Positions 4,884-40,463 of a stretch of 64,000 nucleotides of DNA are shown here, one piece after another. The DNA is from Bacteroidota bacterium (lineage in GTDB: Bacteria; Bacteroidota; Bacteroidia; Chitinophagales; Chitinophagaceae), in the NCBI GenBank assembly GCA_018267965.1, contig JAFDXK010000001.1, positions 1,195,520 to 1,259,519 of the forward strand, given 5' to 3'. The position numbers were made by a program, and so were the translations under genes. Numbering within the stretch: position 1 is the stretch's first letter; each line of letters begins with the position of its first letter. The notes beneath the pieces were generated by a model. The model had not been told where the DNA came from, did not search any database, and was given only the letters and a program-made list of their open reading frames with translations.

Positions 4884-5534
4884 ATGATAACCAATTTGAG
4901 CAAAATCAACTCACTGTTGAGTGAATGGATAAGAGAAATAAGGGATGTGGATATTCAAAATGACCGTATGCGTTTCAGGCGTAATATGGAGCGCATTGGA
5001 GAAATAGCCGCTTATGAAATAAGTAAAGAATTGCCATATAAGCTGATTTCAGTGCAAACCCCTATGGGTCAATCTGAATGCTATGAACTGGAGTTTCAAC
5101 CTGTTTTAGCAACGATTCTCAGGGCAGGCGTACCCTTGCACCAGGGGTTGCTTAACTACTTTGACAAGGCTGATAATGCTTTTGTAGCCGGATACCGCAA
5201 ACACCACAGGGACGGCAGTTTTGAGATAGAACAGCATTATTTTACCTGCCCCGATGTAAGTGGCAGCCCCCTCATCATTGCAGACCCTATGCTGGCTACA
5301 GGCTCGTCACTGATATTAGCTTTAGAAACCATAATAGATATGGGCGCTCCTTCACAAATACACATAGTTTGTGCTATTGCCTGCGAAGAAGGTATTGAGC
5401 TTTTACAACGCAAATTCCCTACAGCTCATATATGGGCCGGTGCTATAGATGACGAATTAACTGCAAGGGGATATATAGTTCCGGGGTTGGGAGATGCGGG
5501 TGACCTGGCTTTCGGTTCAAAAAAACAGGCCTAA
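4884..5534 (+). CDS. upp: Uracil phosphoribosyltransferase
   Basis: 216 aa. Overall similarity to Upp, including a PRPP-binding region (IIADPMLATGSS) and a C-terminal YIVPGLGDAGD motif. Confidence 0.9.
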   Translation: MITNLSKINSLLSEWIREIRDVDIQNDRMRFRRNMERIGEIAAYEISKELPYKLISVQTPMGQSECYELEFQPVLATILRAGVPLHQGLLNYFDKADNAFVAGYRKHHRDGSFEIEQHYFTCPDVSGSPLIIADPMLATGSSLILALETIIDMGAPSQIHIVCAIACEEGIELLQRKFPTAHIWAGAIDDELTARGYIVPGLGDAGDLAFGSKKQA

Positions 5535-5635
5535 CCCAACGAAAATAATATTTCATACTGTCTTGGATAATAGGAGAATTTATCCTATTTTGCTGTCAGA
5601 AACTCAATTAAAAATTCATAATAAACGTTACCCAG

Positions 5636-6673
5636 ATGAAGAAAATATTACTAGGAGTGGGTGCATCAATGTTATTGGTGACTTCAGCTATGGCACAAGA
5701 TCCGCACTTTACTCAATATTTTGCATCACCTCTTACGCTCAACCCTGCACTTTCGGGATTGACTACCTGCGACTTCCGCCTGGCAGCCAATTACCGTACT
5801 CAATGGGGAAGCGTATCTCCTAATCCTTATGTTACCGGTACCATATCTTACGATATGGCTACAATGAAAGGTAAGCTCAATAATGGCGATGCAGTGGGTA
5901 TAGGTATATTGGGTTTGTATGACAAGTCTGGTGTAGGTGCCCTTCAAAACACGAGTGTTGGTCTTTCTTTAGCTTATCACAAAGCTTTAGGCTACGAGAA
6001 ACAGCACACATTATCTATAGGGTTGCAAGGTATTTTAGTGCAAAAATCTATTGACTTCCAAAAATTGAAGTTCGAAGACCAATTTAATTTCGCTACTGGT
6101 GGTACAGAATACCAGACAAGTGAACAATTGGGTAATGCGGACTTAACATATCCTGATTTCAACCTGGGTGCTATGTATTCAGGTCGTATGGGAGAATTCG
6201 CTACCATGTATGCAGGTGTTTCTTATTACCACCTCACTCAACCAGTTGAAACATTCCTGAACGGAAACCACAAAATACATTCTCGTTATAGTGCTTATTT
6301 AGGTGGTTCTTTCGATATGAATGAAAACATCGTATTGTATGCAAGCGCATTATATCAATCACAGGCTTCTGCATCTGAAGTGCTTGTTGGTGCAGCAGTA
6401 GGTTTCATATTGAATCCTGGTCATGATGCCGAATACGCTAAAAATACAATCCTGTACTTAGGTAGCTGGTATCGTTACGGCGATGCTCTTGCTCCATATA
6501 TTGGTATGGAATGGTCTAAAATGAAATTAGGTTTCACATACGACCTTAACGTTTCTGGTTTCTCTGCTGCAACTAAGAGCAACGGTGGCTATGAAATTTC
6601 ATTGATTTTCAACGGTTGTATCAATAAACGCGAAGCTCGTCCTACATACAACTTCGCTTGTCCTAAATTCTAA
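5636..6673 (+). CDS. Type IX secretion system membrane protein PorP/SprF family
   Basis: 345 aa. Signal peptide followed by QDPHFTQYFASPLTLNPALSG, the hallmark N-terminal motif of PorP/SprF. Beta-barrel-like composition. Confidence 0.75.
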   Translation: MKKILLGVGASMLLVTSAMAQDPHFTQYFASPLTLNPALSGLTTCDFRLAANYRTQWGSVSPNPYVTGTISYDMATMKGKLNNGDAVGIGILGLYDKSGVGALQNTSVGLSLAYHKALGYEKQHTLSIGLQGILVQKSIDFQKLKFEDQFNFATGGTEYQTSEQLGNADLTYPDFNLGAMYSGRMGEFATMYAGVSYYHLTQPVETFLNGNHKIHSRYSAYLGGSFDMNENIVLYASALYQSQASASEVLVGAAVGFILNPGHDAEYAKNTILYLGSWYRYGDALAPYIGMEWSKMKLGFTYDLNVSGFSAATKSNGGYEISLIFNGCINKREARPTYNFACPKF

Positions 6674-6692
6674 TAACAATCTTTATAATGAA

Positions 6693-6720
6693 GAACCCCG
6701 GTTATGCCGGGGTTTTTTAT
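6693..6720. terminator. Bidirectional rho-independent terminator between convergent genes
   Basis: gaaccccgg-ttatg-ccggggtttttt: a GC-rich hairpin with a T-run, placed between the PorP/SprF stop (6673, +) and the mpg stop (6717, -). Confidence 0.8.
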
Positions 6721-8525: not shown

Positions 8526-9662
8526 TTACTTTACCTTTCTGCCTTTCCATTTATACACACCAATAAACCCTAAAAAGCCTGCCAATACAATGTATATGAT
8601 ATGCAAAGGTTGCAAAAAAGGAAATATAATCAGCTGTTTTTCTTTTTTAAAGAACCTCGCAACAGGGTACAGATAGTCTAATTCGGTTATGGTCTTTACC
8701 ACCAAAGCTACTAATACCAACAACCAGTGTCCGGGTACAAATAACGCGTAAATAGTAAGTAATAGAATGGATAGATTGAACAGGTAAACCAGTAATAAGA
8801 TAGCTGTTAATCGTTTATCATTATACTTGCCCGATTTAGATGCCCAGCGTATTCGTTGCTGTAAAAAGTTGCTCCAGTCGGGTTGAGGAGCTGTTCTTAC
8901 AATAACTTCCTGTGATTTGAGATATGCAATACCATCGGGGTAAGCTTGTTTAATCTTCATCATCAGTAAATAATCGTCCCCAGATGCCAGATTATCTATG
9001 CCCTTATAGCCACCTACCCTATCATATACTTCTCGTGTGAAAGCAAGATTGGCACCATTGCTCATATTACCTAAGCCCAGCTTATGCGATGCAGCAGTGA
9101 TTCCCTGCATACTCATAAAATCTAAGGACTGAAACATCTGTACAACACTGCCATTGCTTGTAAAATCAACAGGTGCAACAATCATTGCAGGTTTTATTTC
9201 TTCGTATAATGCAGCTATATTTTTAAGCCAGTTTTGAGGCGCTACGCAATCTGCATCAGTAGTAATAATTAACTCACCGTTAGATATCGCAATAGCTTTT
9301 GAGAGTGCTAATTTTTTGTATGCAACTGTTTTTTCATCTGGAGAAATAACATCTGCCAGCTTAACAGATTTGATATAGGGATTATTAAACGCTTGCACTA
9401 CTCCTGCGGTATTATCAGTTGAATGATCATCAACAACTATCACTTCAAACAGATGCTTAGGATAGTCCTGAGCTATTATTGATTGCAGACATTTACCAAT
9501 ATTCTGTTCTTCATTACAGGCAGGAATAACAATACTGATTTTCGTTTTTGGTGTAAACCCTTGCTCTATCTCAAATACAGGTTGCGCAGACCATCCCCTG
9601 CGATATACCAACATGAGTATAGCATAGGCAATAACGAACGATATGGATATATAAGGTATCAC
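8526..9662 (-). CDS. Glycosyltransferase family 2 membrane protein
   Basis: 378 aa. An N-terminal TM helix is followed by ISIVIPACNEEQNI and DD/DAD motifs of GT2, with C-terminal TM helices. Confidence 0.75.
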   Translation of the reverse strand: MIPYISISFVIAYAILMLVYRRGWSAQPVFEIEQGFTPKTKISIVIPACNEEQNIGKCLQSIIAQDYPKHLFEVIVVDDHSTDNTAGVVQAFNNPYIKSVKLADVISPDEKTVAYKKLALSKAIAISNGELIITTDADCVAPQNWLKNIAALYEEIKPAMIVAPVDFTSNGSVVQMFQSLDFMSMQGITAASHKLGLGNMSNGANLAFTREVYDRVGGYKGIDNLASGDDYLLMMKIKQAYPDGIAYLKSQEVIVRTAPQPDWSNFLQQRIRWASKSGKYNDKRLTAILLLVYLFNLSILLLTIYALFVPGHWLLVLVALVVKTITELDYLYPVARFFKKEKQLIIFPFLQPLHIIYIVLAGFLGFIGVYKWKGRKVK

Positions 9663-10477
9663 AAGCAGGCTACTATTTGAGGTATGGTATCTTCATCAAA
9701 CAATAAATGTCCTTTCTCAACTACGTGCAGTGATATGTTCTTCATTTTATCTTCGAACGCATGACCATGTGATACCGGTATCACATTATCATAAGCGCCC
9801 ATAAAGACATGCACCTTTGTCTTATTGCTTTTGCATATCGCTTTTAACTTATTATAGTCGGGCAACAGTAGAGACATGCAAGGCCATACTTTTAAGAGGA
9901 ATGCCCGGTCTTCTTTTTCCTGTATGTAACGCATCGCAAGTTTGTAATGCGATTGCTGCACAATCTTCCATTTTCTTGCCATTTTTATCAACGGCAAATA
10001 TCTTTCAGGCTTAGACAAGAAACTACTGAATAAATATTTCCCTGCTTTCATGCGGGTAAGGAAATAGTAAAAAGGATTGGAGGTTAAGCCATCTGAAGCC
10101 AATAAAATAACATTGTCCACTTTACCCGGAGATTGTTCTAATATCTTCAGGCATACCCTGCCACCCATACTATACCCTAACAGGCTTATTTGGCTGACAT
10201 TATATTCTCTACAAAGTTGTTCTACTAATTCATCCAACATGGCAGGTTCCAGATAAACACCATCAGTCCAAAGGCTCTTACCATGATGAGGTAAGTCAAG
10301 GCTTAAGATTGTATACTTTTCTTCTACATGTGTCGCAATTGGCATCAGTATCTCAGCACTATTGCCATATCCGTGCAACATTACCAACAAACTGCTGCCA
10401 CGACCTGATTTCAGATAGTGCAATTGCTCTTTGCCGACTGATATAAATCCAGATGAATAAGCCATTAACTTCCTCAA
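9659..10477 (-). CDS. Alpha/beta hydrolase fold protein
   Basis: 272 aa with an HGYGNS oxyanion region and a GYSMGG nucleophile elbow. It overlaps the GT2 gene by 4 nt. Confidence 0.7.
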   Translation of the reverse strand: MRKLMAYSSGFISVGKEQLHYLKSGRGSSLLVMLHGYGNSAEILMPIATHVEEKYTILSLDLPHHGKSLWTDGVYLEPAMLDELVEQLCREYNVSQISLLGYSMGGRVCLKILEQSPGKVDNVILLASDGLTSNPFYYFLTRMKAGKYLFSSFLSKPERYLPLIKMARKWKIVQQSHYKLAMRYIQEKEDRAFLLKVWPCMSLLLPDYNKLKAICKSNKTKVHVFMGAYDNVIPVSHGHAFEDKMKNISLHVVEKGHLLFDEDTIPQIVACL

Positions 10478-16743: not shown

Positions 16744-17097
16744 TTATACTGCGAATGAACTACCGCATCCGCATGTGCTGCTGGCATTAGGGTTTTTAAA
16801 TACAAATCCGCGTGCATTCAATCCATCCTGAAAATCTACCGTCATACCGAACAAATAGATACCATGTGCATTCTTCATAACGACAGGAATACCTTCAATA
16901 TTGTATTCGGTATCATCAGCTTCTTTATTATCAAAGCCTAATATATAACTCATTCCAGAACATCCGCCACCTTTTACACCCACACGCAAATATTGTCCGC
17001 TGTTGGTATCAAAATCAGGTTGCGACATCAGCCTTTTTACTTCATTCACTGCCCCTTCTGTAAGACTCACAGGAGTTTGCACCATCGTCATATCCAT
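16744..17097 (-). CDS. Iron-sulfur cluster insertion protein (HesB/IscA/ErpA family)
   Basis: 117 aa with a conserved Cys in GGCSG and the C-terminal CGCGSSF motif. Confidence 0.85.
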   Translation of the reverse strand: MDMTMVQTPVSLTEGAVNEVKRLMSQPDFDTNSGQYLRVGVKGGGCSGMSYILGFDNKEADDTEYNIEGIPVVMKNAHGIYLFGMTVDFQDGLNARGFVFKNPNASSTCGCGSSFAV

Positions 17098-17222
17098 ACT
17101 ATAATATTTTATACAAAATTACCACACTATAAGGGGCTATCCAAATAGCTAACACTAAAGTGTGTATATGTTGTTTATATATATAGAAAACAGCAGTATA
17201 AGGTATGTTAACGAACATTTTT

Positions 17223-17230
17223 TACATTTG
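17223..17230 (+). promoter_or_regulatory. Candidate Bacteroidota -7 promoter box upstream of frr
   Basis: tacatttg matches TAnnTTTG and lies about 26 nt upstream of the frr ATG. Confidence 0.3.
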
Positions 17231-17255
17231 TGCTCCGTAAAAAACAGTATACCGT

Positions 17256-17819
17256 ATGAGCGAGGTTATAGATATGCTTATTGATGAATCGACGAGCCTG
17301 ATGAAGAAGGCCATTAACCATCTTGAAACAGAATTGAGCCGTATTCGCGCCGGAAAAGCTAACCCTCAGATACTGGATGGTGTGCACGTTGATTACTATG
17401 GCGCATCTACCCAACTGGCACAGGTGGCAAATATCACTACCCCTGATGCCCGTACGATTTCTATTCAGCCCTGGGAGAAAAATATGCTGGGTCCTATCGA
17501 AAAAGCCATCATTGCATCTAACATAGGTTTGAACCCTCAAAACGATGGTAATATCATACGCCTTTTCTTACCACCGCTTACAGAAGAGCGCCGTAAGGAA
17601 CTGGTGAAGCGTGTAAATGCCGAAGGCGAGCAGGCTAAAATAGCAGTACGCAACATCCGCCGCGATGTGATAGAACAAATAAAGAAAGAACAGAAGAACG
17701 GGCTGAGCGAAGATGCCACCAAAGATGCCGAAGGACGTGTGCAGGGCATTACCGATAAATACATTGCACTGGTAGACCAGCACTGTAAAGACAAAGACAA
17801 AGAAATAATGACCGTTTGA
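17256..17819 (+). CDS. frr: Ribosome recycling factor
   Basis: 187 aa with full-length similarity to RRF (MKKAINHLETELSRIRAGKANPQILD...). Confidence 0.9.
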   Translation: MSEVIDMLIDESTSLMKKAINHLETELSRIRAGKANPQILDGVHVDYYGASTQLAQVANITTPDARTISIQPWEKNMLGPIEKAIIASNIGLNPQNDGNIIRLFLPPLTEERRKELVKRVNAEGEQAKIAVRNIRRDVIEQIKKEQKNGLSEDATKDAEGRVQGITDKYIALVDQHCKDKDKEIMTV

Positions 17820-17821
17820 TA

Positions 17822-17846
17822 TGAAGCCCTTGAAAGCGGGCTTTTA
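17822..17846 (+). terminator. Rho-independent terminator after frr
   Basis: aagccc-ttgaaagc-gggctttt directly after the frr stop. Confidence 0.6.
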
Positions 17847-17859
17847 CAATTAGAGCCTT

Positions 17860-18759
17860 ATGGACGAGTTTCAGAAACAATTAATACTACTGTTTTCCAT
17901 TCCTATCTACGCTATTCTCATTCCGCTGGAGATATTACTGAGTAATTACCGCCACCGCAAATGGTATAGCTGGAAGGAGACTGCTACGAATGTTTACCTC
18001 AATCTTATCAATTCGGGCATAGACTTATTGCTACGCGGGTTTGCACTGTTTGTGCTTATCTATTTTTCTCAATTCGGTGTAAAGAATACATTATCTCCTG
18101 TAGCTTATTGGTTTGTATTATTTATCTGCGAAGATTTCCTCTTCTGGCTGGAGCATTATGTAGACCATTCGGTACGCTTCTTCTGGGCAGTGCATGTTAC
18201 CCACCACAGCAGCGAGGAATATAACCTGAGTACCGGTTTCCGCTCATCGGTCTTTATGCCTTTGTACCGCTACATGTATTTTATACCAATGGCATTATTA
18301 GGTTTCCGCCCGATAGACATACTATTCATGTATGCCATTACTCAGATATACGGCATACTGGTACATACGCAATCTATCAAGAAACTACCCCGCTGGATAG
18401 AATTCATATTCGTTACTCCTTCTCACCATCGTGTGCACCATGCCAGCAATGCACCCTACTTAGATAAAAACATGGGCATGGGACTTATTATCTGGGACAG
18501 GATATTCGGCACCTTTGCCGAAGAGATGGATGAAGAACCACCGCACTACGGTTTGACTACTCCTGTAGCGAAACCTAACCACCCCATTCATATCGTTACC
18601 CACGAATGGGAAGCCATAGCGCAAGACCTGAAGAAGAAAGTGCCTTTCAAAACCAAATTGGGTTACATCTTTCAACCACCCGGATGGAGCCACGACGGCA
18701 GTAAAAAAACATCGAGGCAATTGAGAAGGGAATGGAAGGAGAATAGGTTAAAAAAATGA
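17860..18759 (+). CDS. Sterol desaturase / fatty-acid hydroxylase superfamily membrane protein
   Basis: 299 aa with multiple TM helices and histidine boxes (HxxDH, HVTHH, HHRVHH). Confidence 0.75.
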   Translation: MDEFQKQLILLFSIPIYAILIPLEILLSNYRHRKWYSWKETATNVYLNLINSGIDLLLRGFALFVLIYFSQFGVKNTLSPVAYWFVLFICEDFLFWLEHYVDHSVRFFWAVHVTHHSSEEYNLSTGFRSSVFMPLYRYMYFIPMALLGFRPIDILFMYAITQIYGILVHTQSIKKLPRWIEFIFVTPSHHRVHHASNAPYLDKNMGMGLIIWDRIFGTFAEEMDEEPPHYGLTTPVAKPNHPIHIVTHEWEAIAQDLKKKVPFKTKLGYIFQPPGWSHDGSKKTSRQLRREWKENRLKK

Positions 18760-18767
18760 TTGAGGGT

Positions 18768-19000
18768 GTTCACTGTTCACTAGTGAACACTTTCATTTTG
18801 CATTTTTCATACCTACTCACGTCATTGCCCGATAATCATCCGTCATATTGACTGCGAGTAACGAAGCAGGAAATATCTCCTGAACATTAGTATGCTGCTT
18901 GGGAGATTTCTCCCTTCGGTTCGAAATGACGGACGGGTTCGTGGGGTGTTCAGATTGAACAGTTGAACACTTGAACACTTTCATTTTGCATTTTTGACCT
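18768..19000. repeat. Left-flank cluster of TGTTCA/TGAACA palindromic repeats, two units each followed by tttcattttgcattttt
   Basis: Unit A at 18771..18795 is gtgttcactgttcactagtgaacac, which contains the perfect 16-bp palindrome tgttcactagtgaaca. Unit B at about 18949..18981 is gtgttcagattgaacagttgaacacttgaacac. Both are followed by the identical 17-mer tttcattttgcattttt. Confidence 0.7.
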
Positions 19001-19129
19001 CCCTTGTTTCACTTCATTCAACATCCCCTCCTTACAAAAGGAGGGGACAAAGGGGCGGTACAATATCTTTAACCTCCCGCATATTGCAATAACTTATGCG
19101 TTATAGTATATTAGATATACTAAACTGCA

Positions 19130-20608
19130 TTGAAAACCTTACAACAAATATTAGCTTTTATACAACCTGCACCCAGGCTGAAGTTGTTGATGTTTGTGGT
19201 GGTTTGTTACTGTCTGTCACTCAATCTTTCTTTTCCCCGCCAACCTGATTATAATGAGTTTAACACTTCTTTGGAGAGGAGTATGGCTATAGAGAAAAGA
19301 AGTACAGCAAAAAGACTTAATGCTATTGAAGAAGAAGGAAAAACATACCGAGAACGTTATACAGTATATTTAGAAAAAGCCTACAATATCAACGCATGTT
19401 TTCTTAAAGTCACTGCAAATATTGATTCTATAAAAAGTTGCATTGATCCTACTTCAACGCATAAATATCATGTAAGTGCAGAAACAATTGATTATTTAGA
19501 TAACAGCATAAATCAATTCCTTAAGTCAATCGGCGATAATATCAGCCAGAATATTAGAGACTATCTTGTTAAGGATATTACCGATTGTCTATTTAAAGAA
19601 ACAAGCAACAAAACCTTATTAACAGCACTTTTAAAAGATAAAACTGCGAACGAAACTTATACGCTTTTAACCGTAATACAAAACAACATTACTTTATCTA
19701 ATGAAGTAGCTATTCAGGAAATTTCAAAAGAAGCTGGTGGCTGTAACTTAATATGTGATATACCATTTTGTGTTGCCATTCCTTTAACCTGTTATGTGCA
19801 ATACGGAGATAAAGTAAAAGCTCAAATGTTTATTGGCAATTACAACAAAGCTACCAACCCTACTTTTACTACCAATAGAGGCCATATAACAAAAGTTGAA
19901 AATGGATTAGCTTCATTAATTGCCAATACTAAATACCCGGGGCTATACCAATTATACGGCACTGCTACATTAGAAGATTACGACGATACAATTATCAGAC
20001 CGTGGTCTACTCAATACTATGTAGCTAACCAGGGAGTGTTTATGAACATATGCAAACCTAATTATTGCTACAGAGGCATGAATAATACCGTTACACTTAA
20101 CTATCCGGGTTATGAAGCTGATAAATTATCATTAAGGGCTGATGGTGCTAAAGTGATAAAACTATCTGATGGCAGGTATAATATTATAGTTGATAAATCT
20201 CCTAAAGAAATTACAGCCTATATGGATGGCATCAACCCCGATGGCAGTAAGAGTGTTGCACTGGCTACCAAGCGAATTATTGTGGCTAATCCTCCCCCAC
20301 CCATAGCTTGCGTGGGCGATAATGCGGGTGGTCATATCAGTTTAAAAGAACTAACTCGTAACAACAAACTATCTGTAACACCCCGTGATGAAGACATAGA
20401 TATGGTGTATAGTATTAAGAGTTATCAAATTACATGTTTGAATAGCAAGTCTTTTACCGAAGCTGTAACTATTGAGGGAGGTGTATTTGACAAAGATATC
20501 ATCAGCAAACTTCAGCATGGCGACAGGATATATTTTACAGACATTGTGGCTGCCGACAAGAATGGGAAAATGATTACAGTGCCACCTGTTGCATTTGTCA
20601 TTGAGTAA
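19130..20608 (+). CDS. Hypothetical membrane-anchored protein with GldM/PorM C-terminal-like region
   Basis: 492 aa with one N-terminal hydrophobic helix. The C-terminal 150 aa show patterned similarity to the GldM C-terminal Ig-like domains (GD-x-I/V-x-F/I-x-x-I ... P-x-V-x-x-V-I-E end). No gldK/L/N neighbours. The start codon is uncertain. Confidence 0.4.
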   Translation: MKTLQQILAFIQPAPRLKLLMFVVVCYCLSLNLSFPRQPDYNEFNTSLERSMAIEKRSTAKRLNAIEEEGKTYRERYTVYLEKAYNINACFLKVTANIDSIKSCIDPTSTHKYHVSAETIDYLDNSINQFLKSIGDNISQNIRDYLVKDITDCLFKETSNKTLLTALLKDKTANETYTLLTVIQNNITLSNEVAIQEISKEAGGCNLICDIPFCVAIPLTCYVQYGDKVKAQMFIGNYNKATNPTFTTNRGHITKVENGLASLIANTKYPGLYQLYGTATLEDYDDTIIRPWSTQYYVANQGVFMNICKPNYCYRGMNNTVTLNYPGYEADKLSLRADGAKVIKLSDGRYNIIVDKSPKEITAYMDGINPDGSKSVALATKRIIVANPPPPIACVGDNAGGHISLKELTRNNKLSVTPRDEDIDMVYSIKSYQITCLNSKSFTEAVTIEGGVFDKDIISKLQHGDRIYFTDIVAADKNGKMITVPPVAFVIE

Positions 20609-20772
20609 AAATGAAAAGTACAGGTGTTCAACATTGAACACTTGAACAGTTAAACACCATCACTAACAAATAAAGAAAAGCAAAAATTAGCACAACTTAT
20701 TGAATATTAGCGCATTGTATCGAAATGCAAAATGCAGGTGTTCACGGTGTTCACTAGTGAACAGTGAACACT
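20609..20772. repeat. Right-flank cluster of TGTTCA/TGAACA palindromic repeats, inverted relative to the left flank
   Basis: 20745..20769 gtgttcactagtgaacagtgaacac is the exact reverse complement of 18771..18795. 20625..20660 gtgttcaacattgaacacttgaacagttaaacac is a B-like unit. Each is preceded by aaaatg(c)aaaatg, the reverse complement of the left-flank 17-mer. Confidence 0.7.
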
Positions 20773-21180
20773 TTACAATCCTCCCATCTTCATTATCTTT
20801 TTGTACTCGGCTGGTTTTACAGTGCCTACGCTCAAACGCCCGAGGCGTACCAAGTCCATATCTTTAAAAGCAGGGTCTGCTTTCAATGCTTCGAGTGTTA
20901 CGGGCTTAGGCATGGCTTGTACAGGTTTTAAATCTACCACTACCCAGTTCGGGTCATCCGTCGTAGGGTCCTGGTATGCTGTTTTTACGACTTCAGCTAT
21001 ACCTACTATTGCAAGCCCTTCATTACTATGATAAAAGAATACATGGTCGCCTTTGGACATTGCACGCAGGTTGTTGCGAGCAGCATAATTACGCACACCA
21101 TCCCAAACAGCTTTCTTGTCTTTTACCAACTGTTCCCAACTATATTTAAACGGTTCTGATTTTACGAGCCAGTAATTCAT
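20773..21180 (-). CDS. EVE domain (PUA-like) protein
   Basis: 135 aa. MNYWLVKSEPFKYSWEQL...GDHVFFYHS is the characteristic EVE/ASCH-like PUA fold N-terminus. Confidence 0.8.
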   Translation of the reverse strand: MNYWLVKSEPFKYSWEQLVKDKKAVWDGVRNYAARNNLRAMSKGDHVFFYHSNEGLAIVGIAEVVKTAYQDPTTDDPNWVVVDLKPVQAMPKPVTLEALKADPAFKDMDLVRLGRLSVGTVKPAEYKKIMKMGGL

Positions 21181-21187
21181 GTTTTAT

Positions 21188-21379
21188 TTATGATTTATGT
21201 TTACTAAGTAAATAAACTTTACGCCAAAGCAATATAGTTATTATTAAAAAAGCAGCAGTCATAATCACAAACCCATAGAATAGCTGTTTATATTCGTACA
21301 CATCGTAGCAATTAGGTATGGCTAATAAAGACACTAATGTCATTACGATAGCAGCAATAATAAAAATCACTTTTTTCAT
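21188..21379 (-). CDS. Small hypothetical membrane protein (about 64 aa, two TM helices)
   Basis: The ATG at 21379 (MKKVIFIIAAIV...) gives two hydrophobic helices. The six-frame track extends it to a TTG at 21403. It lies inside a duplicated copy of the EVE gene 5' end. Confidence 0.4.
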   Translation of the reverse strand: MKKVIFIIAAIVMTLVSLLAIPNCYDVYEYKQLFYGFVIMTAAFLIITILLWRKVYLLSKHKS

Positions 21380-21462
21380 GGTTCTGATTTTACGAGCCGG
21401 CAATTCATGAGTATCGAATATTAATACGCCAATTTACGATAAAGAACTTATTTTTAAAGACA

Positions 21463-21780
21463 ATGACAGATACAGATAATAGCAACGAAGCACGAACAGC
21501 AATTGTAGGCTATATCGTTTTATTGCTACTTGTAAATATTGCCGGCTGTGCTAAAATATACAGTGCAGGCGGATGGGCTCAATTAGGCATGCTTGTGTTT
21601 GTTGCCCCCATATACGAGGGATTATTTTTATTGTTTGGCTGCATTATGGTATGGCGATTGGACAAAAAGTATCCTCAAAAAGATTTTGGATTGTACTGGT
21701 TTACAGTCATTGCCCTACCCATCTTGCTTTATGCAGTAACTGCCATGTTTACGTTTGCCTATTCCAAAGGAGGCTGTTAG
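21463..21780 (+). CDS. Hypothetical membrane protein
   Basis: 105 aa with three predicted TM helices and no recognisable family. Confidence 0.4.
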   Translation: MTDTDNSNEARTAIVGYIVLLLLVNIAGCAKIYSAGGWAQLGMLVFVAPIYEGLFLLFGCIMVWRLDKKYPQKDFGLYWFTVIALPILLYAVTAMFTFAYSKGGC

Positions 21781-21803
21781 TATAACTTGTATATCTTTAA
21801 ACA

Positions 21804-22343
21804 ATGATGAAGAGATTATTCACTGCACTGTTAGTAAGTATATCTGTTGTAACGTTTGCACAAAAAGTACCAGATTGCAACCAGGCGCGTTTTGAAGATG
21901 CACTGCTTGATAAAATGCAAGGCGAATGGGTGATGACCGGTAAACTGGGAGAAAAAGATGTGGTGTATAATGTTAGTTGCAAATGGGTATTGAACCACCA
22001 GTTTTTAGAATGGGACTTCGTAAATGCCACCAATGCCATTCAATACGAGGCAAAAGTATTCATTGGCTATAACTGTACCGACAAACGCTATGTAATGCAC
22101 TGGATGGATATGATGGGTGGCAAGTTTTCGGAAGCACTAGGCTATGGAATAAAAGTGAGTGGCAAAGAAATAGATTTTAAATTCAAACGCCCAACTGACA
22201 TCGACCCTAACAAATACATTAATCAAAACAATAAAATCTCCTACAACCCCGATAACGATATGTGGCAGTTTCATGTAGTGATGCTGAACGACAAGAAACA
22301 ATGGGTTACCTGGTCGATGAATACGATGGCACGGAAGAGGTAG
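21804..22343 (+). CDS. Hypothetical secreted protein
   Basis: 179 aa with a signal peptide (TFAQ) and a Trp-rich beta-type composition. No recognisable family. Confidence 0.45.
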   Translation: MMKRLFTALLVSISVVTFAQKVPDCNQARFEDALLDKMQGEWVMTGKLGEKDVVYNVSCKWVLNHQFLEWDFVNATNAIQYEAKVFIGYNCTDKRYVMHWMDMMGGKFSEALGYGIKVSGKEIDFKFKRPTDIDPNKYINQNNKISYNPDNDMWQFHVVMLNDKKQWVTWSMNTMARKR

Positions 22344-22403
22344 CAGCTGATTATGCAATATTTCGAATAATGGCTCCGTTGTATATAAAACATTATTTAC
22401 GCC

Positions 22404-22841
22404 ATGAGAACCTATGTTATATTCGCCGTTGTTTTGTTATATTGTACTGCATGTCACAAAAAGGGTACAAGCATTCAATACAGTTCGGATATCACTACAA
22501 AGGATATATATCTTTCTACAATTAAGCATGTAAAGATTGTGAATATCAACAAGAAAAATGTATTAGATACTACCTTAATTGGGAGCACAAGTTTTCAACT
22601 TATAAAAGATACAGCTGCAAAGAAAGTATACGTTGTAGGGTTAAACAGCAGGATAGATACGTTTCCTGCTGCATTGGAATACTATAACCAATATTACGGA
22701 TATAGTATCGGAGATACAGATATTATATTGGATGTTACCATTTATCATCCTGATACAGTAAGCGTTTGGATTGGATATTACAATGATACCACCAAACAAT
22801 TTATTAATGGCTACATCTATGATGGTCATAAACAGAAATGA
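22404..22841 (+). CDS. Hypothetical lipoprotein
   Basis: 145 aa with a signal peptide and a lipobox-like LLYCTAC motif. Confidence 0.4.
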   Translation: MRTYVIFAVVLLYCTACHKKGTSIQYSSDITTKDIYLSTIKHVKIVNINKKNVLDTTLIGSTSFQLIKDTAAKKVYVVGLNSRIDTFPAALEYYNQYYGYSIGDTDIILDVTIYHPDTVSVWIGYYNDTTKQFINGYIYDGHKQK

Positions 22842-22854
22842 CGGAAAAGCATCT

Positions 22855-23814
22855 TTATGCCTCCCTCGTCAGCAGATAACTGGCTAAATCGTGCAGGTGT
22901 TTTTTACGTACACTTTGTACGGCAGCATCTTCAAGGCATTCAAACGCCAGTTGCGAATAATGCGCTATAGCTTCTTTACAGGCTTCATCAGCTCCCGTAT
23001 TATTAAAGAGCGATAACATAGCAGGCACCTTGCTTTCATCATCACGTTGCAGCAATGCGTTGATAGCCTGGTACTGCAACTCGTTAGCATTCTCCTGTGC
23101 CTTCAGCAAGAGGTAGGTCTTCTTGTTCGATTTGATATCACCACCCTGCTGCTTGCCCGTAATGGTACTGAAAGCATCTAAATAATCATCCCTCAACTGA
23201 AAAGCTATACCCAGATTCTTACCAAACTCATACAGCTTATTGGCATTGCCATCAGTGGCTCCACCCAGCAATGCACCCATCTTGAGGCTGCATGCTAATA
23301 ACACCGATGTTTTAAGCGTTATCATTTCGATATACTCTTCGATACTTACATCATTGCGGGTTTCAAAATCCATATCCAGTTGCTGGCCTTCGCACACTTC
23401 AATAGATGTTTTGTTGAACAGATGCAGCACCTGCGGCAGGCTGGTTTTGATATGTGCCAGCTGGTCGTAGGCATAGATAGCCATCACGTCGCCACAAAGT
23501 ATACCCGCAGTCAGCCCGTTACGCTCGTGCACAGTGGTCTTGCCTCTGCGCAACGGCGCTTTATCCATGATGTCATCATGTATCAGCGTGAAGTTGTGAA
23601 ACAGCTCTACACCCATAGCAGCACGCCAGGCATCTTCGGTAAGCTCACCAAACAATTCATTAGCCATCAGCGCCAATACGGGGCGTACACGCTTGCCTCC
23701 TATGGTCATGAAATAGCGGCAGGGCTCATATAATGTATTCGGCCTTTCGGGAAAAGGCATGATATTATTTAACTTATCTTCAAAAAGTGTAACCAGTTCG
23801 TTGAAGCTATGCAT
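22855..23814 (-). CDS. Polyprenyl diphosphate synthase (trans-isoprenyl diphosphate synthase family)
   Basis: 319 aa with a first Asp-rich motif (LIHDDIMD) and a second (LRDDYLD). Confidence 0.85.
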   Translation of the reverse strand: MHSFNELVTLFEDKLNNIMPFPERPNTLYEPCRYFMTIGGKRVRPVLALMANELFGELTEDAWRAAMGVELFHNFTLIHDDIMDKAPLRRGKTTVHERNGLTAGILCGDVMAIYAYDQLAHIKTSLPQVLHLFNKTSIEVCEGQQLDMDFETRNDVSIEEYIEMITLKTSVLLACSLKMGALLGGATDGNANKLYEFGKNLGIAFQLRDDYLDAFSTITGKQQGGDIKSNKKTYLLLKAQENANELQYQAINALLQRDDESKVPAMLSLFNNTGADEACKEAIAHYSQLAFECLEDAAVQSVRKKHLHDLASYLLTREA

Positions 23815-28835: not shown

Positions 28836-31004
28836 ATGAAGCGCTACACTCTACTTCTGACGTTTATATTACTACGCATTTTTGAGGCATATGCACAAAC
28901 GGTATGTCCTCCTAATATTGACTTTGAACAAGGTAATTTTACCAATTGGACTCCTTATACAGGCACATGCTGTCCCATAAATGTATCACAGGTAGGCGCT
29001 CCTGTGTCTAACAGGCATGAATTAAAATCAATTGTTTCTACACCATCTACAGACCCTTATGGAGGTTTTCCTGTTATAGCTCCTTCAAGCGGGTTATATT
29101 CAGTAAAAATTGGCAATGACCAAACCGGTGCACAAGCAGAAAGTATCCGTTATTTTTTAAAGATACCCTCAACAGCCAGCTCCGCGTATGTTCTGGTATT
29201 CAGATACGCTGTAGTTTTTCAGGACCCCGGACATACTATCCAACAACAACCCCGTTTTGAAGTAGCTGCATTAGATTCAGCCACAGGTGATACTATCGGC
29301 TGCAACCACTTTACATTCGTTGCATCATCATCATTGCCCGGCTTCATTACTGCATCTACCGGCAGTAACGTTTTATACAAACCATGGTCTACCTATTCAA
29401 TAGATTTATCTAAAGCAAAAGGCAAGACAGTAGCACTTGATTTTGCTACCGGTGATTGTGCTTTAGGTGCTCATTTCGGTTATGGCTATGTAGATGTCAA
29501 TTGTGGTTTGTTTGAAACACTAAAAAAAGTATGCAGCCCCGGAGACCTGACACAAGTTGTAGCACCTGCCGGATTTCAAAATTATGCATGGTGGGATTCA
29601 GCTTTTACGACCTATTATGGTGGTACACAAACACAAAACCTGACGGTACCATATCAAACAAAGACTTATGCGGTTGTATTAACGCCATACCCCGGCTTAG
29701 GATGTAATGATACTTTATATACTACTCTGAGTCTCGAAGACCTCGTTACCAACCCAACATCAGATACCACTATTTGTGTTGATAGTAGCATAGCACTGCA
29801 ACTACACTCTAACGTAACAGCGGCATATCCTCCAGTTATGTATTCATGGGCACCACCTACAGGCTTAAGTTGTACCAACTGCGCCGACCCTGTAGCTAAT
29901 CTGTCTGCTAATGCAAAATATTACTTTACTGTAGTTGACAGTAAAGGATGTAAACGGTGGGATACATTAGATATCAATGTAGGTAAAACGGTCATTGCGA
30001 ACATGAGCAAACCTGCAGATAGTGTTTGCCAGTTTTTAGATGTGGGTCTTCAAAATCTGTTCAAGCATAAAATTGGCTCTGCATATGATTGGGGGCTGGA
30101 TAGTGGCGGTAAAATAAGAAGTATTGATACTAACACGGCAGTAGTATATTGGACTACGACGGGTCTAAAAAAGATAAAACTCCACGTTCACAATGGCGGT
30201 TGTTACGACGATGATTCAGCTTATGTGTACGTAAAACCTACGTCAGTAGCTTCTTTCGATCTTAAGAAAACAGCATGCATTAACGAGGAGCTCACACTAA
30301 CGCCAATGGAAACCAAAGATGCAACCTACCATTGGACGATTACCCAAGGTAGCATTACAGATACTACCTATGTTCCTAAATATACCCTCAAGTGGGACAA
30401 CAAAGGACTAAAAACAGTTACGCTTACATTGAATGCTAAAAACTTCTGCGCTACAGCACCATACAGCTCTACTGTGTTTGTAAATGACAACCCTGATGCG
30501 AAAATATCATTGAGTACAGACAACTATTGTATCGGCGATCATATTACCCTCCGCTGCAATGAAGGTTCTGATAATTATTACGCATGGAGCCCTGTTGAAT
30601 ATTTTGAAACCAACAACTATCACGAGGTAACTATGAAAGTAGAAAACTCAACAGTTGTCAATCTTAAAGTCATTAACCGTTGGGGTTGCTATAATACAGA
30701 CAGCACATACATCAATACTACTACCTGCTGCAGGCCTATTATGCCGGGTGCATTTACGCCAAACAAAGACGGACACAATGATACCTACAGGCCTTTAGGA
30801 TTAGACAATCAACAGGTAATTAGTTTTGTGGTAAGAAACAGATATGGCCAAGTGGTGTTCGAGGGAAAGAACTCCAAAGACACATGGGATGGTACCATAA
30901 ACGGCACTCCGCAGGATGTAGGCACCTACTATTATTATTTGAAATACCTGTGCAATTATAAAGACACCAAAGAAGAAAAAGGAAGTTTCACTTTATTAAG
31001 ATAA
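28836..31004 (+). CDS. T9SS type-B C-terminal-domain (gliding-motility-associated CTD) secreted protein
   Basis: 722 aa with a signal peptide. It is Cys-rich with Ig-like repeats. The C-terminal 90 aa (PGAFTPNKDGHNDTY...YYYYLKY) match the CHU_C / type-B sorting domain. Confidence 0.75.
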   Translation: MKRYTLLLTFILLRIFEAYAQTVCPPNIDFEQGNFTNWTPYTGTCCPINVSQVGAPVSNRHELKSIVSTPSTDPYGGFPVIAPSSGLYSVKIGNDQTGAQAESIRYFLKIPSTASSAYVLVFRYAVVFQDPGHTIQQQPRFEVAALDSATGDTIGCNHFTFVASSSLPGFITASTGSNVLYKPWSTYSIDLSKAKGKTVALDFATGDCALGAHFGYGYVDVNCGLFETLKKVCSPGDLTQVVAPAGFQNYAWWDSAFTTYYGGTQTQNLTVPYQTKTYAVVLTPYPGLGCNDTLYTTLSLEDLVTNPTSDTTICVDSSIALQLHSNVTAAYPPVMYSWAPPTGLSCTNCADPVANLSANAKYYFTVVDSKGCKRWDTLDINVGKTVIANMSKPADSVCQFLDVGLQNLFKHKIGSAYDWGLDSGGKIRSIDTNTAVVYWTTTGLKKIKLHVHNGGCYDDDSAYVYVKPTSVASFDLKKTACINEELTLTPMETKDATYHWTITQGSITDTTYVPKYTLKWDNKGLKTVTLTLNAKNFCATAPYSSTVFVNDNPDAKISLSTDNYCIGDHITLRCNEGSDNYYAWSPVEYFETNNYHEVTMKVENSTVVNLKVINRWGCYNTDSTYINTTTCCRPIMPGAFTPNKDGHNDTYRPLGLDNQQVISFVVRNRYGQVVFEGKNSKDTWDGTINGTPQDVGTYYYYLKYLCNYKDTKEEKGSFTLLR

Positions 31005-38600: not shown

Positions 38601-40463
38601 CTAATCAATATCTTTAAAGTTCACTTTGACGTATTTCCAATTCTTGATTAAATACAATGGAACCTTAATCGGACTCTGATAATTAACTGTATCTGCAATA
38701 CTCCTTGCAAAAATAGATACAATAGCATTGGGATTTGACTTTATGTAAGACTCAGAAATAACACCATGGTCTGCTTTGAATCTATCATTAAAAAGTAGTA
38801 TACTTTCTTTTATTCCTGAAAGTTTATATAGCCCTAAGAATAGTTTATTATTAGAAATTTTATCTTCAATGAAATGGTCATTCCATAATTTTAGAACATA
38901 ATATCCAAGCTTCTCTGTAGGATTAAATACTGTTTTCTGTTGAACAATTCTATCCAGATAAATTTCTATATATTTTTTTTGTTCTTGCTTCTGAGATTTA
39001 GTAAGATTAATAATATCAATAAACAGATTAGATGTATTCCGGGTTAAAACGGTAGCCATTGCACTCTCAAGAGGCATATGTGCCAACTCATTCTTAATAT
39101 CATCATCTAAAGGATTATAGTTAGCAATATAAAAGCCTGCTAAATACTCCTGAATAGATTTGTGTGAAAACTGGTAAAGATCATATCCACAAACAAGGAT
39201 AATCCCTGAGTGGTCTCGTATTTCATTTACTACCTCTTCAGGGCTATTCTGAGGTAAATTTGGATAGAATTTTTTTATATCATCGTAAGCTGTAACTAAA
39301 TTTAATCTATTGAAATAAACCAAATTTCTACACAATAATTTATATGCAAGATGAGATAAAAACGATAACTTATCAATGTAATCAAAATTTGCATATTTTG
39401 ATTCTCGATGAATACCCCCTCGAACTTTATCCCAACGCATAAATAATATTTCAATTACGTCTCTATACAAATTTTTTGGGATTTCTGGGATTCTGTTATT
39501 TATTGAATAAAGGCCAGCTAAATAAGATAAAATTAATGGTTGTCCAGCCACATCATTAAATGCTGAATTCATTATTTCTATATAAAACAAACTCCCCTTT
39601 TCTTGTCCAAGCCATTTTTCAGAAAATTCTAAAATTTGAGACGGTTTAAATGGGGCAATTTCAAATACATGAATATTACTAGGGGAAAAGTCAAAATTCG
39701 ATGTTCGTGAAGTAATAATCAACTTTGATTTTTGTAGGTATTGGCTTATCTCATTTAGTTCTTGGTAAACAACAGACTGTTGTAAAATAGGCAACTCATC
39801 AAATCCATCAACAATTAATAAACACTTAAGGGCATCTATATAATCCCATATTTCATGCCTTATTTTCGCACTTTCAACCTTGAAATCTTTGAAAATATCT
39901 TTATTATGTCGCACTAGAATTCCTAATTCTTCTTGCAAATATTCAGTAACAACATATTTACATTTAACATCTGTATTATTTATTTTTCTGCATAAAACAA
40001 CTAGTGGACAAGTATAATCCGACAAATAATTTTCCTCTGTGATGCATTTATACGTAATCATTTTCATGGATGTTGTTTTACCCATCCCTGCTTCCCCAAC
40101 AATTGCAAGATGCTTATCTGTTTGAGAGAAAATTGTATCTATAAGCTTCTCATTGGTACCCTGATTTGCAAAATGATTATATCGCGCAGTAACATAATAC
40201 TCCAAATCTATATAAGTATTTTTGACATCTTTTGAATTTTCAAAACTGATACCTTCTAAGTTTTGACACCAAGATTGTATTTTTTTTGAGAGATTTTGGA
40301 ATGAATGCTCTAGTTCATGTTTTGACACTTTTAAATTAATGTCTTCTCTTTTAAGCCCTTCACGCAGTTTAGTATATGCTTCATTAAAAGCTTTTTCAAA
40401 CAAAAAAGACGTTATTCCCATGAGATAGATTATATAAATAATAAATATAGCAATACAAATCAA
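38601..40463 (-). CDS. Membrane-anchored NACHT-domain (STAND) NTPase
   Basis: 620 aa with an N-terminal TM helix (MICIAIFIIYIIYLMGITSFLF). The NACHT motifs are Walker A GEAGMGKTT, Walker B LLIVDGFDE, sensor IITSRTS, a GxP-like AGQPLIL, and a winged-helix signature FSHKSIQEYLAGFY. The gene is strongly AT-rich compared with its neighbours. Confidence 0.8.
   Translation of the reverse strand: MICIAIFIIYIIYLMGITSFLFEKAFNEAYTKLREGLKREDINLKVSKHELEHSFQNLSKKIQSWCQNLEGISFENSKDVKNTYIDLEYYVTARYNHFANQGTNEKLIDTIFSQTDKHLAIVGEAGMGKTTSMKMITYKCITEENYLSDYTCPLVVLCRKINNTDVKCKYVVTEYLQEELGILVRHNKDIFKDFKVESAKIRHEIWDYIDALKCLLIVDGFDELPILQQSVVYQELNEISQYLQKSKLIITSRTSNFDFSPSNIHVFEIAPFKPSQILEFSEKWLGQEKGSLFYIEIMNSAFNDVAGQPLILSYLAGLYSINNRIPEIPKNLYRDVIEILFMRWDKVRGGIHRESKYANFDYIDKLSFLSHLAYKLLCRNLVYFNRLNLVTAYDDIKKFYPNLPQNSPEEVVNEIRDHSGIILVCGYDLYQFSHKSIQEYLAGFYIANYNPLDDDIKNELAHMPLESAMATVLTRNTSNLFIDIINLTKSQKQEQKKYIEIYLDRIVQQKTVFNPTEKLGYYVLKLWNDHFIEDKISNNKLFLGLYKLSGIKESILLFNDRFKADHGVISESYIKSNPNAIVSIFARSIADTVNYQSPIKVPLYLIKNWKYVKVNFKDID

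Follow-up and report, generated by a model that had tools for sequence, protein, structure and literature searches.

A gldM-like gene with compound hairpin flanks is inserted between two housekeeping genes

We analyzed a 64-kb stretch of DNA (64,000 nucleotides, hereafter the window) of contig JAFDXK010000001.1 from the Bacteroidota assembly GCA_018267965.1 (Chitinophagaceae), in which four clusters of TGTTCA/TGAACA repeats surround a single gene. The finding is a conserved package, composed of a stand-alone gldM-like gene and compound hairpin flanks, that is inserted between two housekeeping genes. We explain the clusters best, holding this reading with about even confidence, as the compound palindromic flanks of an imported single-gene cassette of 2.0 kb, which would act locally as inward-facing terminators or insulators and would be kept alike on the left and on the right. 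In window coordinates, the package consists of the following elements.

18760-20772: whole insertion, 2.0 kb, reaching from the stop codon of the hydroxylase gene (+) to that of the EVE gene (-)
18766-18790: cluster A (C1), outer left hairpin, GTGTTCAC TGTTCAC TA GTGAACAC, arrows >><
18791-18807, + strand: T-rich 17-mer TTTCATTTTGCATTTTT, tail of module 1, placed after C1 like the U-tract of a terminator; exact copy at 18979-18995
18946-18978: cluster B (C2), inner left hairpin, GTGTTCAG AT TGAACAG T TGAACAC T TGAACAC, arrows ><<<
18979-18995, + strand: second exact copy of the 17-mer TTTCATTTTGCATTTTT, tail of module 2
19084-19114, + strand: promoter-like site TTGCAA-17-TATATT, a sigma-70-like match
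19130-20608, + strand: stand-alone gldM/porM-like gene, 492 aa from a TTG start, with an N-terminal hydrophobic helix and GldM domains 2-4
20607-20623, - strand: A-rich AAAAATGAAAAGTACAG (T-rich on the - strand), degenerate tail of module 3, overlapping the gldM-like stop codon
20624-20657: cluster B' (C3), inner right hairpin, GTGTTCAA CAT TGAACAC T TGAACAG T TAAACAC, arrows ><<<
20723-20737, - strand: AAATGCAAAATGCAG, read as the tail CTGCATTTTGCATTT of module 4 on the - strand
20738-20771: cluster A' (C4), outer right hairpin, GTGTTCAC G GTGTTCAC TA GTGAACAG TGAACAC, arrows >><<

C1 starts 6 nt past the stop codon of the hydroxylase gene, and C4 ends 1 nt short of that of the EVE-domain gene. 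A scan for at least two TGTTCA/TGAACA hexamers per 25 nt detected C1-C4 and nothing else in the window, confirming that the four clusters around this gene are the only ones in 64 kb, and 10 of the 16 GTGTTCA sites of the window fall within them. The 16-bp palindrome TGTTCACTAGTGAACA, which the original prediction had placed in unit A, is present in exactly two copies (at 18774 and 20748), and so is the 17-mer TTTCATTTTGCATTTTT described as trailing each left unit, with one copy 3' of C1 and the other 3' of C2. C1 and 20747-20771 are reverse complements without a mismatch (25 nt, 100%), the copies being 1956 nt apart; the identity of A and inverted A' was thus correctly recognized, its position being 20747-20771 rather than 20745-20769, and C4 carries one additional GTGTTCAC on its left, beyond the reverse complement of C1. 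C2 can adopt several alternative pairings. The outermost bases of the clusters are GTGT...ACAC, and all units start with TG and finish with CA.

The inner pair follows a different geometry. B and B' are 29/34 identical as direct repeats versus 23/35 as inverted ones, and the inversion is limited to their T-rich/A-rich tails, so the supposed A-B-gene-B'-A' layout with an inverted right half applies to A/A' and not to B/B': the right half is not the plain inverse of the left. Similarly, the 17-mer had been claimed to precede each right unit as its reverse complement, but only 12 of 17 positions (C3) and 13 of 17 (C4) agree, and a search allowing 3 mismatches gave no copy there. The tail region of module 4 forms a 23-nt inverted repeat (91%) with 18783-18805.

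Rfam gave no match within 17000-23000 at E up to 1. A metagenome scan for GTGTTCA-N(1-25)-TGAACAC followed by the tail returned 47 matches, all of them simple single hairpins, unrelated to the clusters and mostly of one human-gut sequence, while viral scans returned no match to the cluster module or to the conserved A' hairpin. A likeness of TGTTCA to LexA, CRP, NifA upstream activating sequence or DnaA-box sites was considered and dropped because spacing and orientation do not fit and differ from locus to locus.

The bracketed gene encodes a stand-alone GldM/PorM paralog

Judged by its domains, the bracketed gene is a stand-alone GldM/PorM paralog. Its product matches the Pfam families GldM_2nd (4.7e-8, 33.9 bits, cut-off 24.4) and GldM_4th (1.1e-9, 39.3 bits, cut-off 24.6), with a weak match under the cut-off to GldM_3rd and no Pfam match to GldM_N. 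GldM/PorM chains in PDB are matched at E values of 5e-10 to 6e-8, the best being 7cmg (4.8e-10). The protein is identical to JST82_05815, an NCBI protein from a metagenome-assembled genome (MAG) that was the only match in a word-based homolog search. The gene lies outside any gldK-L-M-N operon, and its homologs stand alone too.

On the left the gene is preceded by a ribosome recycling factor gene and a fatty-acid hydroxylase gene (17860-18759), both on the + strand, and on the right it is followed by the EVE-domain gene (- strand, 20773-21180). A Pfam scan of all open reading frames (ORFs) of at least 110 aa in the window revealed ordinary cellular genes and no recombinase, transposase, integrase, invertase, IntI or repetitive extragenic palindrome (REP)-associated tyrosine transposase (RAYT), which extends the earlier remark that no recombinase or transposase is encoded nearby to the whole 64 kb.

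The 2.0-kb block is an insertion relative to related genomes

Comparison of gene order with related genomes shows that the 2.0-kb block has been inserted. Scanning genomes with the EVE protein provided 80 related loci, from Flavipsychrobacter and other Chitinophagaceae/Sphingobacteriia, none of which carries the gldM-like gene or the TGTTCA clusters. In five of them the hydroxylase and EVE genes are directly convergent, with gaps of 19 bp (locus L004), 23 bp (L014), 66 bp (L003), 81 bp (L050) and 300 bp (L001). As C1 lies 6 nt from one stop codon and C4 1 nt from the other, the inserted DNA is delimited by the outer hairpins, and the bracket thus matches the ends of the cassette whose presence or absence in relatives had been at issue. 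No target-site duplication was detected at the outer ends, where the flanks TTGAGG and TTTACA contain no direct repeat. A/A' itself was rejected as a test for such a duplication; it carries no independent information, because merging A with its own reverse complement always yields a palindrome.

Two of the related gaps have contents of their own. In the closest relative (L001, 625-924) the EVE/hydroxylase gap holds another small ORF of ~96 aa, lipoprotein-like, with an ATG overlapping the EVE stop codon, which makes it appear that insertions have recurred at this intergenic site. In L003 (10406-10471) the gap holds direct tandem repeats of AACCTTT type (TTTTTAACC TTTCAACC TTTTAACCC TTTAAACC) without an inverted partner.

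Hairpin flanks recur around the closest homologs of the gene

A profile-free full scan of 1.84 billion representative proteins defined a homolog family of proteins of ~490 aa with 28 representatives below 1e-30; the two nearest are 43% and 34% identical. The four closest members, namely the window protein (P0001) and those of loci L128 (P0002), L129 (P0003) and L133 (P0004), all have heptamer-foldback hairpins on both sides of the gene, in at least three differing genomic contexts, the L133 contig being too short to show its neighbors.

In L128, whose protein is 43% identical to P0001, the gene stands between a type IX secretion system (T9SS) cargo gene and dus. Its upstream array reads GTGTACG AA GTGTACG GGT TGTACG C CGTACAC, and downstream there are three hairpins with units TGTACG, TGTTCAG and TGTACA/TGTACG; the flanks match each other in inverted orientation over 24 nt at 92% and 17 nt at 100%. 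The layout is as in the window, with a T-tail on the left module and an A-rich run ahead of the right module. In L129 a TGTCCC array lies upstream, arrays of the same unit are found on both sides, and the five downstream arrays (TGTCCCA, TATTCCA, TGTTCCA, mixed and TTTTCAC) are followed by an apparent recA. L133 carries the arrays X (GCGTGAAT), W (TTTTCACG), V (TGTTCCA) and U (TGTCCCA) in the mirrored order X-W-V-U-gene-V'-W'-X', and its inverted arms are 92% alike over 97 nt and 75% alike over 51 nt. Both ends of this Logan contig (1-1931) lie inside its own inverted arms, a break that is expected where inverted repeats around a gene exceed the k-mer.

As a control, exact inverted matches between 300-nt flanks were scored for 907 genes (the window and the 80 related loci), and only 4 of the 907 reached at least 17 nt; the four cassette loci gave 25, 17, 26 and 12 nt, the value of 12 coming from a locus where the end of the contig truncates the upstream flank. 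There are no near-identical copies in other genomes, all homolog clusters being singletons of at most 48% identity, and no GldM-like relatives were found in viral contigs or in phage or plasmid collections.

The box TATATTAG (19107-19114), part of the promoter-like site, is located 23 nt 5' of the TTG start in the window. A TATATT(A/G)G box is found just 5' of the gene start in all four cassette loci. In the window, L129 and L133 it precedes the TTG start by 23-24 nt, and in L128 it precedes the annotated ATG by 74 nt, or an inferred TTG start by ~16 nt. The window protein has a hydrophobic, helix-like N-terminus that is conserved with P0003 ("LLQQI"), and this N-terminal similarity supports the TTG start. 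A search of the left flanks for the Bacteroidetes-type promoter TTTG ... TAnnTTTG gave no full match, only the relaxed start-proximal box. Going by this conserved motif, the promoter most likely lies inside the bracket; the promoter-like box and the entire gene are both enclosed by the repeats. The gldM-like gene has a GC content of 0.36 versus 0.41 in its flanks, and the homologs lie 2-10 points under their own flanks at every locus with at least 5 kb of flank, indicating that low GC is a trait of the family.

Some hairpin stems are orthologous between loci, and copies are most similar within a locus

The A' hairpin of the window and hairpin D2 of L128 (6535-6557) have in common the stems GGTGTTCA-N4-TGAACAGTGAA: all 19 specified stem positions are the same and the loops differ (CTAG versus GCCC), and this was the sole match in 136 loci. 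C3 and hairpin D1 of L128 share their layout, an A-rich run past the stop codon followed by > < <, with the unit changed from GTGTTCA/TGAACAC to GTGTACG/CGTACAC. The two stem differences between them are both compensated (A-T to G-C and T-A to A-T) and recur in the next tandem unit. These compensatory changes in the aligned stems point to selection on pairing. Between L129 and L133 the arrays align at 74-75% identity, equal to the best-conserved coding DNA, in loci whose proteins are 48% identical.

Within a locus, the left and right copies (92% for the L133 arms, 100% for A/A' of the window) are closer to each other than orthologous copies are between loci, and are thus kept alike by recombination or gene conversion, or have arisen by recent duplication. 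The folding energies of the hairpins have no strand asymmetry, so that the transcribed strand cannot be read from them. The properties conserved among the flanks are foldability, the mirrored or bracketing arrangement and left-right similarity; such properties fit palindromes that recombine with each other at the DNA level, which may also serve as insertion ends or sites.

Hairpins with tandem-repeat arms form a wider class

We scanned all loci for generic arrays, requiring that a 6-mer be present in both orientations with at least 4 occurrences per 60 nt. In the Chitinophagaceae/Sphingobacteriia loci scanned, intergenic DNA commonly contains hairpins whose arms are tandem repeats, with units that vary by locus and genome, such as GATTTTGG, AATGTGAC, TTAATGG, ACATAGGA, GATTGCC, CACGGAGA and ATTCGTA. 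Of the foldback-type arrays, 27/34 are intergenic, although intergenic DNA makes up ~10% of the sequence, and all intergenic types are represented. Copies of the same unit lie a few kb apart in L026 and L047, and housekeeping genes are sometimes bracketed, examples being holA (L039, L060) and a thioredoxin-like gene (L034); the arrays therefore behave like locally spreading elements similar to REPs or bacterial interspersed mosaic elements (BIMEs). The window has no arrays except at the cassette, which fits an import of the flanks together with the gene.

Some of these loci deserve a brief description. holA (DNA polymerase III delta; L039 ~8829-9860, L060 ~5777) has an ATTCGTA run on one side and TACGAAT on the other, an arrangement resembling a gene in the loop of a split hairpin array, and in L060 the neighboring PNP gene is flanked by an ATTCGTA-type unit too. 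In L034 (~5429-6694) the thioredoxin-like gene lies between two near-identical palindromic elements of ~105 nt (GAATATCGAAC...GTTCGATATTC), which belong to a family in this Chitinophaga MAG that resembles REPs or miniature inverted-repeat transposable elements (MITEs).

The modules have the form of terminators directed into the cassette

A feature absent from the original prediction is that each unit, together with the T-rich tail after it, is shaped like an intrinsic terminator aimed into the cassette. All four modules of the window present a hairpin and then a U-rich tail in this direction, with the following predicted minimum free energies (MFE) over stretches of 58-66 nt.

C1, + strand: MFE -20 kcal/mol, z -4.8, tail UUUCAUUUUGCAUUUUU
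C2, + strand: MFE -12.6 kcal/mol, tail UUUCAUUUUGCAUUUUU
C3, - strand: MFE -15.5 kcal/mol, tail CUGUACUUUUCAUUUUU
C4, - strand: MFE -18.6 kcal/mol (+ strand -20.3), tail CUGCAUUUUGCAUUU

C1 for the hydroxylase and C4 for EVE have the complete form: each is a stable stem-loop that lies downstream of its gene, on that gene's strand, and is followed by a U-rich tract. A terminator scan identified C1 on the + strand and, on the - strand, C3 at 20641-20624 with tail CTGTACTTTT.

Taken together, we propose that a stand-alone gldM/porM-like gene with its own promoter was inserted between two convergent housekeeping genes, each cluster forming a hairpin whose arms consist of tandem 7-9-nt units. Within the gldM-like clade the hairpins would be inherited with the gene, their foldability kept by compensatory change or by strict stem conservation, and recombination or gene conversion between the flanks, or a recent duplication, would account for the likeness of left and right. 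The insertion would have displaced any native terminator between hydroxylase and EVE; the outer hairpins C1 and C4 would then terminate the hydroxylase and EVE transcripts, and all four hairpins would shield the gldM-like gene from read-through and antisense transcription. Termination plus insulation is taken as the most likely local function because C1 and C4 sit where these two transcripts must end. We infer that the flanks were imported with the gene and that they took part in its insertion.

Several observations weigh against this proposal. The terminator activity is itself a prediction, the simple terminator scan picks only C1 (+) and C3 (-), and C2 folds no better than shuffled sequence (z 0.01). 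The L129 and L133 hairpins lack U-rich tails, the upstream hairpin of L128 stands in a divergent intergenic region with no incoming transcript to stop, and a T-rich tail accompanies only 9/32 generic arrays versus 15% of control positions, a weak enrichment; together with the lack of strand bias, this excludes termination as the conserved function of the flanks. That 19 stem positions are identical between loci whose proteins share 43% identity points to recognition of a specific sequence, or to an exchange in the recent past, more than to structural constraint alone. There are no arrays around the more distant homologs L130, L131, L132, L134 and L136 (L135 is too short to judge), and further TGTTCA arrays may exist in the source genome outside the 64-kb window.

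Alternative explanations and known systems

Of the other explanations, we regard as possible, although doubtful, that a non-autonomous mobile cassette has the compound inverted repeats as its functional ends. It would be of a foldback-type/MITE-composite or attC-like kind, and an enzyme encoded elsewhere, recognizing the TGTNC units or the hairpins, would move it. If attC-like, a circle with a single A-tract/hairpin/T-tract palindrome after the gene would cross over in a chromosomal hairpin, giving hairpin-T ... gene ... A-hairpin. This would explain why the insertion is bounded exactly by A and A', 1-6 nt from the neighboring stop codons, why the four homologs are array-flanked in at least three contexts, why left and right ends co-evolve and why the stem sequence is conserved across homologs 43% identical. 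The TG...CA form of all units and the GTGT...ACAC ends are in agreement with it, and the direct cores and inverted tails of B/B' are what a crossover within a palindrome flanked by A- and T-tracts would leave; L128 has a similar layout, with a T-tail on the left and an A-rich run before the right module. However, the 64 kb hold no transposase or recombinase, no target-site duplication borders the outer ends and no second copy exists in the window, results that also speak against the original suggestion of an insertion sequence (IS) or MITE remnant in the strict sense. Recent spread is not apparent, as the closest homolog is 43% identical and every cluster a singleton, and phage, plasmid and viral collections contain no relatives. 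Several differing units stand adjacent in L129 and L133, which is awkward for one sequence-specific enzyme, and housekeeping genes such as holA are bracketed by same-unit arrays too, apparently via local spread.

Foldback elements and MITE-flanked composite cassettes are known mainly from eukaryotes and from a few bacterial MITE pairs. Like them, the package has long terminal inverted repeats made of short tandem repeats around a passenger, and no transposase inside; unlike them, its inner pair is direct, and it comes without a target-site duplication, multicopy evidence or demonstrated mobility. With IS elements and MITEs it shares terminal inverted repeats (A/A', 25 nt), but it is a 2-kb element whose only gene is GldM-like, with no other copy in the window or the 80 related loci. 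As in integron cassettes, a single ORF is combined with an imperfect palindromic site of which the structure is conserved more than the sequence, and the split-site geometry (hairpin-T ... A-hairpin) resembles an integrated circle; unlike in integrons, which have an IntI integrase and attI and whose attC sites share one orientation, each at the 3' end of a promoterless ORF, there is no IntI in the window, the flanks lie on both sides and are mostly inverted, the gene has its own promoter-like box and there is no cassette array.

A more specific form of mobility, which we consider improbable, is that heptamer-foldback hairpins with A- and T-tracts are recombination sites of an undescribed kind of gene cassette in Bacteroidota. 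A circle would carry one palindromic A-tract/hairpin/T-tract site that doubles as a bidirectional terminator, and a structure-guided crossover into chromosomal hairpins would leave hairpin-T ... gene ... A-hairpin. The nested pairs (A/A' outside B/B'; X, W, V and U in L133) would then record successive events, and the passenger GldM paralog might modulate the type IX secretion/gliding motor.

We give little credence to an invertible, phase-variable segment, one of the options initially raised, in which recombination between A and A' by a distant global invertase or RecA would flip the gene. In Bacteroides, invertases are known that act at a distance on many loci. The perfect inverted repeat (25 nt, 1956 nt apart) and the long inverted arms around the homologs are in its favor, as is the closer similarity of left and right arms than of orthologous ones, which implies recombination between them, and physical inversion by recombination between the arms is plausible. 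However, the repeats enclose the entire gene together with its promoter-like box, and the outer hairpins look like inward terminators, so that orientation would not change expression. Furthermore, the ORFs of 110 aa or more in the window include no invertase, B and B' are direct repeats, and a single self-complementary palindrome makes up 16 nt of the 25-nt perfect repeat. The likeness to the invertons of Bacteroidota, which are phase-variable invertible promoters, is thus in the inverted repeats around a DNA segment, whereas a 2-kb segment with promoter and whole gene, compound hairpin repeats and the lack of an invertase in 64 kb set the package apart.

It is also unlikely that the heptamer arrays are operator or centromere-like sites for a DNA-binding protein, for example of the ribbon-helix-helix type, that regulates or silences the gldM-like gene. 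Ribbon-helix-helix proteins bind contiguous 7-8-bp units in mixed orientation, and the arrays do consist of contiguous 7-9-bp units in both orientations, which are related across loci (TGTTCA, TGTACG, TGTCCC and TGTTCC, all TG..C(A/G)). The 19/19 stem positions common to the window and L128 would suit a bound protein, and the folding energies, without strand bias, do not indicate a role in RNA only. On the other hand, no regulator gene adjoins the cassette in any locus, unit spacing ranges from 7 to 11 nt with four or five differing units within one locus, the differences between orthologous hairpins are compensatory, and equivalent hairpins with unrelated units are common elsewhere. The iteron-type array that had also been suggested does not fit: iteron arrays are direct repeats of ~17-22 bp beside a rep or par gene, unlike the mixed-orientation 7-9-nt units found here, which vary in spacing, stand next to differing units in the homolog loci and have no rep or par gene.

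It is very improbable that the clusters are chance repeats or the host's usual REP-like palindromes, unrelated to the gene. Although tandem-arm hairpins are widespread in intergenic DNA of relatives and sometimes bracket housekeeping genes, within 64 kb they occur only at the gldM-like locus, TGTTCA clusters are found in 0/80 related loci, chance alone would, by our own calculation, produce ~1e-9 exact inverted repeats of 25 nt in 2.4 kb, and the flanks are recurrent and orthologous around homologs in differing contexts, so that the bracket is not a ubiquitous REP without connection to the gene.

Returning to compound flanks with a local terminator or insulator function, the package combines REP/BIME-like palindromes, foldback-like inverted flanks and terminator insulation, and is a member of none of these classes. 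RAYT genes are flanked by inverted copies of the extragenic palindromes known as REPs, BIMEs and REPINs (Bertels & Rainey 2011, PMC3116915). The clusters resemble these in being short extragenic hairpin palindromes, in clusters of alternating orientation, often at gene ends and with the pairs more conserved, and in placing inverted copies on either side of a gene. They differ in that their arms are tandem 7-9-nt units and the flanks are inherited with the gene across genomes, in that the window has no RAYT (a Y1 transposase) and the bracketed gene is a GldM paralog rather than a transposase, and, within 64 kb, in having zero other copies. Like bidirectional intrinsic terminators, they place a stem-loop and U-rich tail right after the hydroxylase (+) and EVE (-) stop codons; unlike them, they comprise four related modules with heptamer-built stems that accompany the gene elsewhere, some of them downstream of no gene. 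TAACTGA heptamer repeats of Beggiatoaceae, Cyanobacteria and Bacteroidetes are nearly always direct, with 169 direct sets versus one inverted repeat, and lie just upstream of start codons (MacGregor 2015, PMC4679880). These too are intergenic tandem heptamers of patchy phylogenetic distribution that includes Bacteroidetes, but the window combines direct and inverted units into hairpins flanking a gene.

Full-text literature searches found no description of tandem-arm hairpins or of a cassette of a gldM-like gene plus flanks. If our reading holds, it defines intergenic hairpins of Chitinophagaceae/Sphingobacteriia as a class of their own, with both arms built from tandem 7-9-nt repeats and a unit that varies by locus and genome, and it also defines a small clade of stand-alone gldM-like genes travelling with compound inverted hairpin flanks, in which some stems are conserved or compensated although the homolog proteins are only 43-48% identical. 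This would provide a system for studying the origin of extragenic palindromes and their two-sided coordination around a gene, and for asking whether palindromes insulate foreign genes transcriptionally or act as structure-specific recombination sites. It also draws attention to an orphan paralog of a type IX secretion motor protein, with modulator, decoy or other as candidate roles. In practical terms, such flanks break short-read assemblies, L133 ending in its inverted arms, so that systematic fragmentation of these cassettes is to be expected, and they can be mistaken for invertons.

Spacers and neighboring DNA

The remaining elements inside the bracket are two spacers and an additional hairpin.

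18808-18945: spacer between A and B, 138 nt, strongly self-folding (MFE -43.8 kcal/mol, z -2.5)
19025-19046: perfect hairpin with a 9-bp stem, CCCCTCCTT-ACAA-AAGGAGGGG, between B and the promoter-like box
20658-20722: spacer between B' and A', 65 nt, with no significant fold and no similarity to the left spacer

The 138-nt spacer has no Rfam match and no further copy by Blast in the window or in the loci compared; it may be similar to a widespread 'CGTCATTGCGAG...CTCGCAATGACG' type of hairpin repeat of Bacteroidota. TGAACAC and the 17-mer together form a 24-nt exact direct repeat, TGAACACTTTCATTTTGCATTTTT, with copies 188 nt apart, and given that this repeat bounds it, the spacer may be a separate insertion. 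The direct repeat encloses a 164-nt segment (18808-18971), a pattern similar to the duplicated 5' end of EVE described below. The 65-nt spacer had no copies by Blast among the loci compared. The CCCCTCCTT/AAGGAGGGG hairpin is followed by no U-tract on the + or the - strand, and the region that holds it, 19000-19070, folds with -22.4 kcal/mol (z -3.6).

Elsewhere in the window, genes for a PorP/SprF type IX secretion membrane protein (5636-6673), a CHU_C-tailed type IX cargo protein (28836-31004) and a NACHT-domain NTPase (38601-40463) are found.

A second block that is additional with respect to related genomes is located at 21181-22854, ~1.7 kb of low-GC DNA with three + strand ORFs, one of them DUF1579 and two without a Pfam match. 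In related genomes the polyprenyl synthase gene is 20-507 bp from EVE (at most 58 bp in 6/10 loci), and EVE thus has insertions on both sides. The 5' end of EVE is duplicated over ~32 nt including the ATG (21150-21180 and 21379-21410, 3 mismatches), the copies enclosing a small - strand ORF for a membrane protein (~21188-21380). The upstream copy retains the ATG and 10 codons and then has a TGA that overlaps the ATG of the small ORF, an arrangement that, from these repeats, looks like a gene inserted with duplication of the start of its target.

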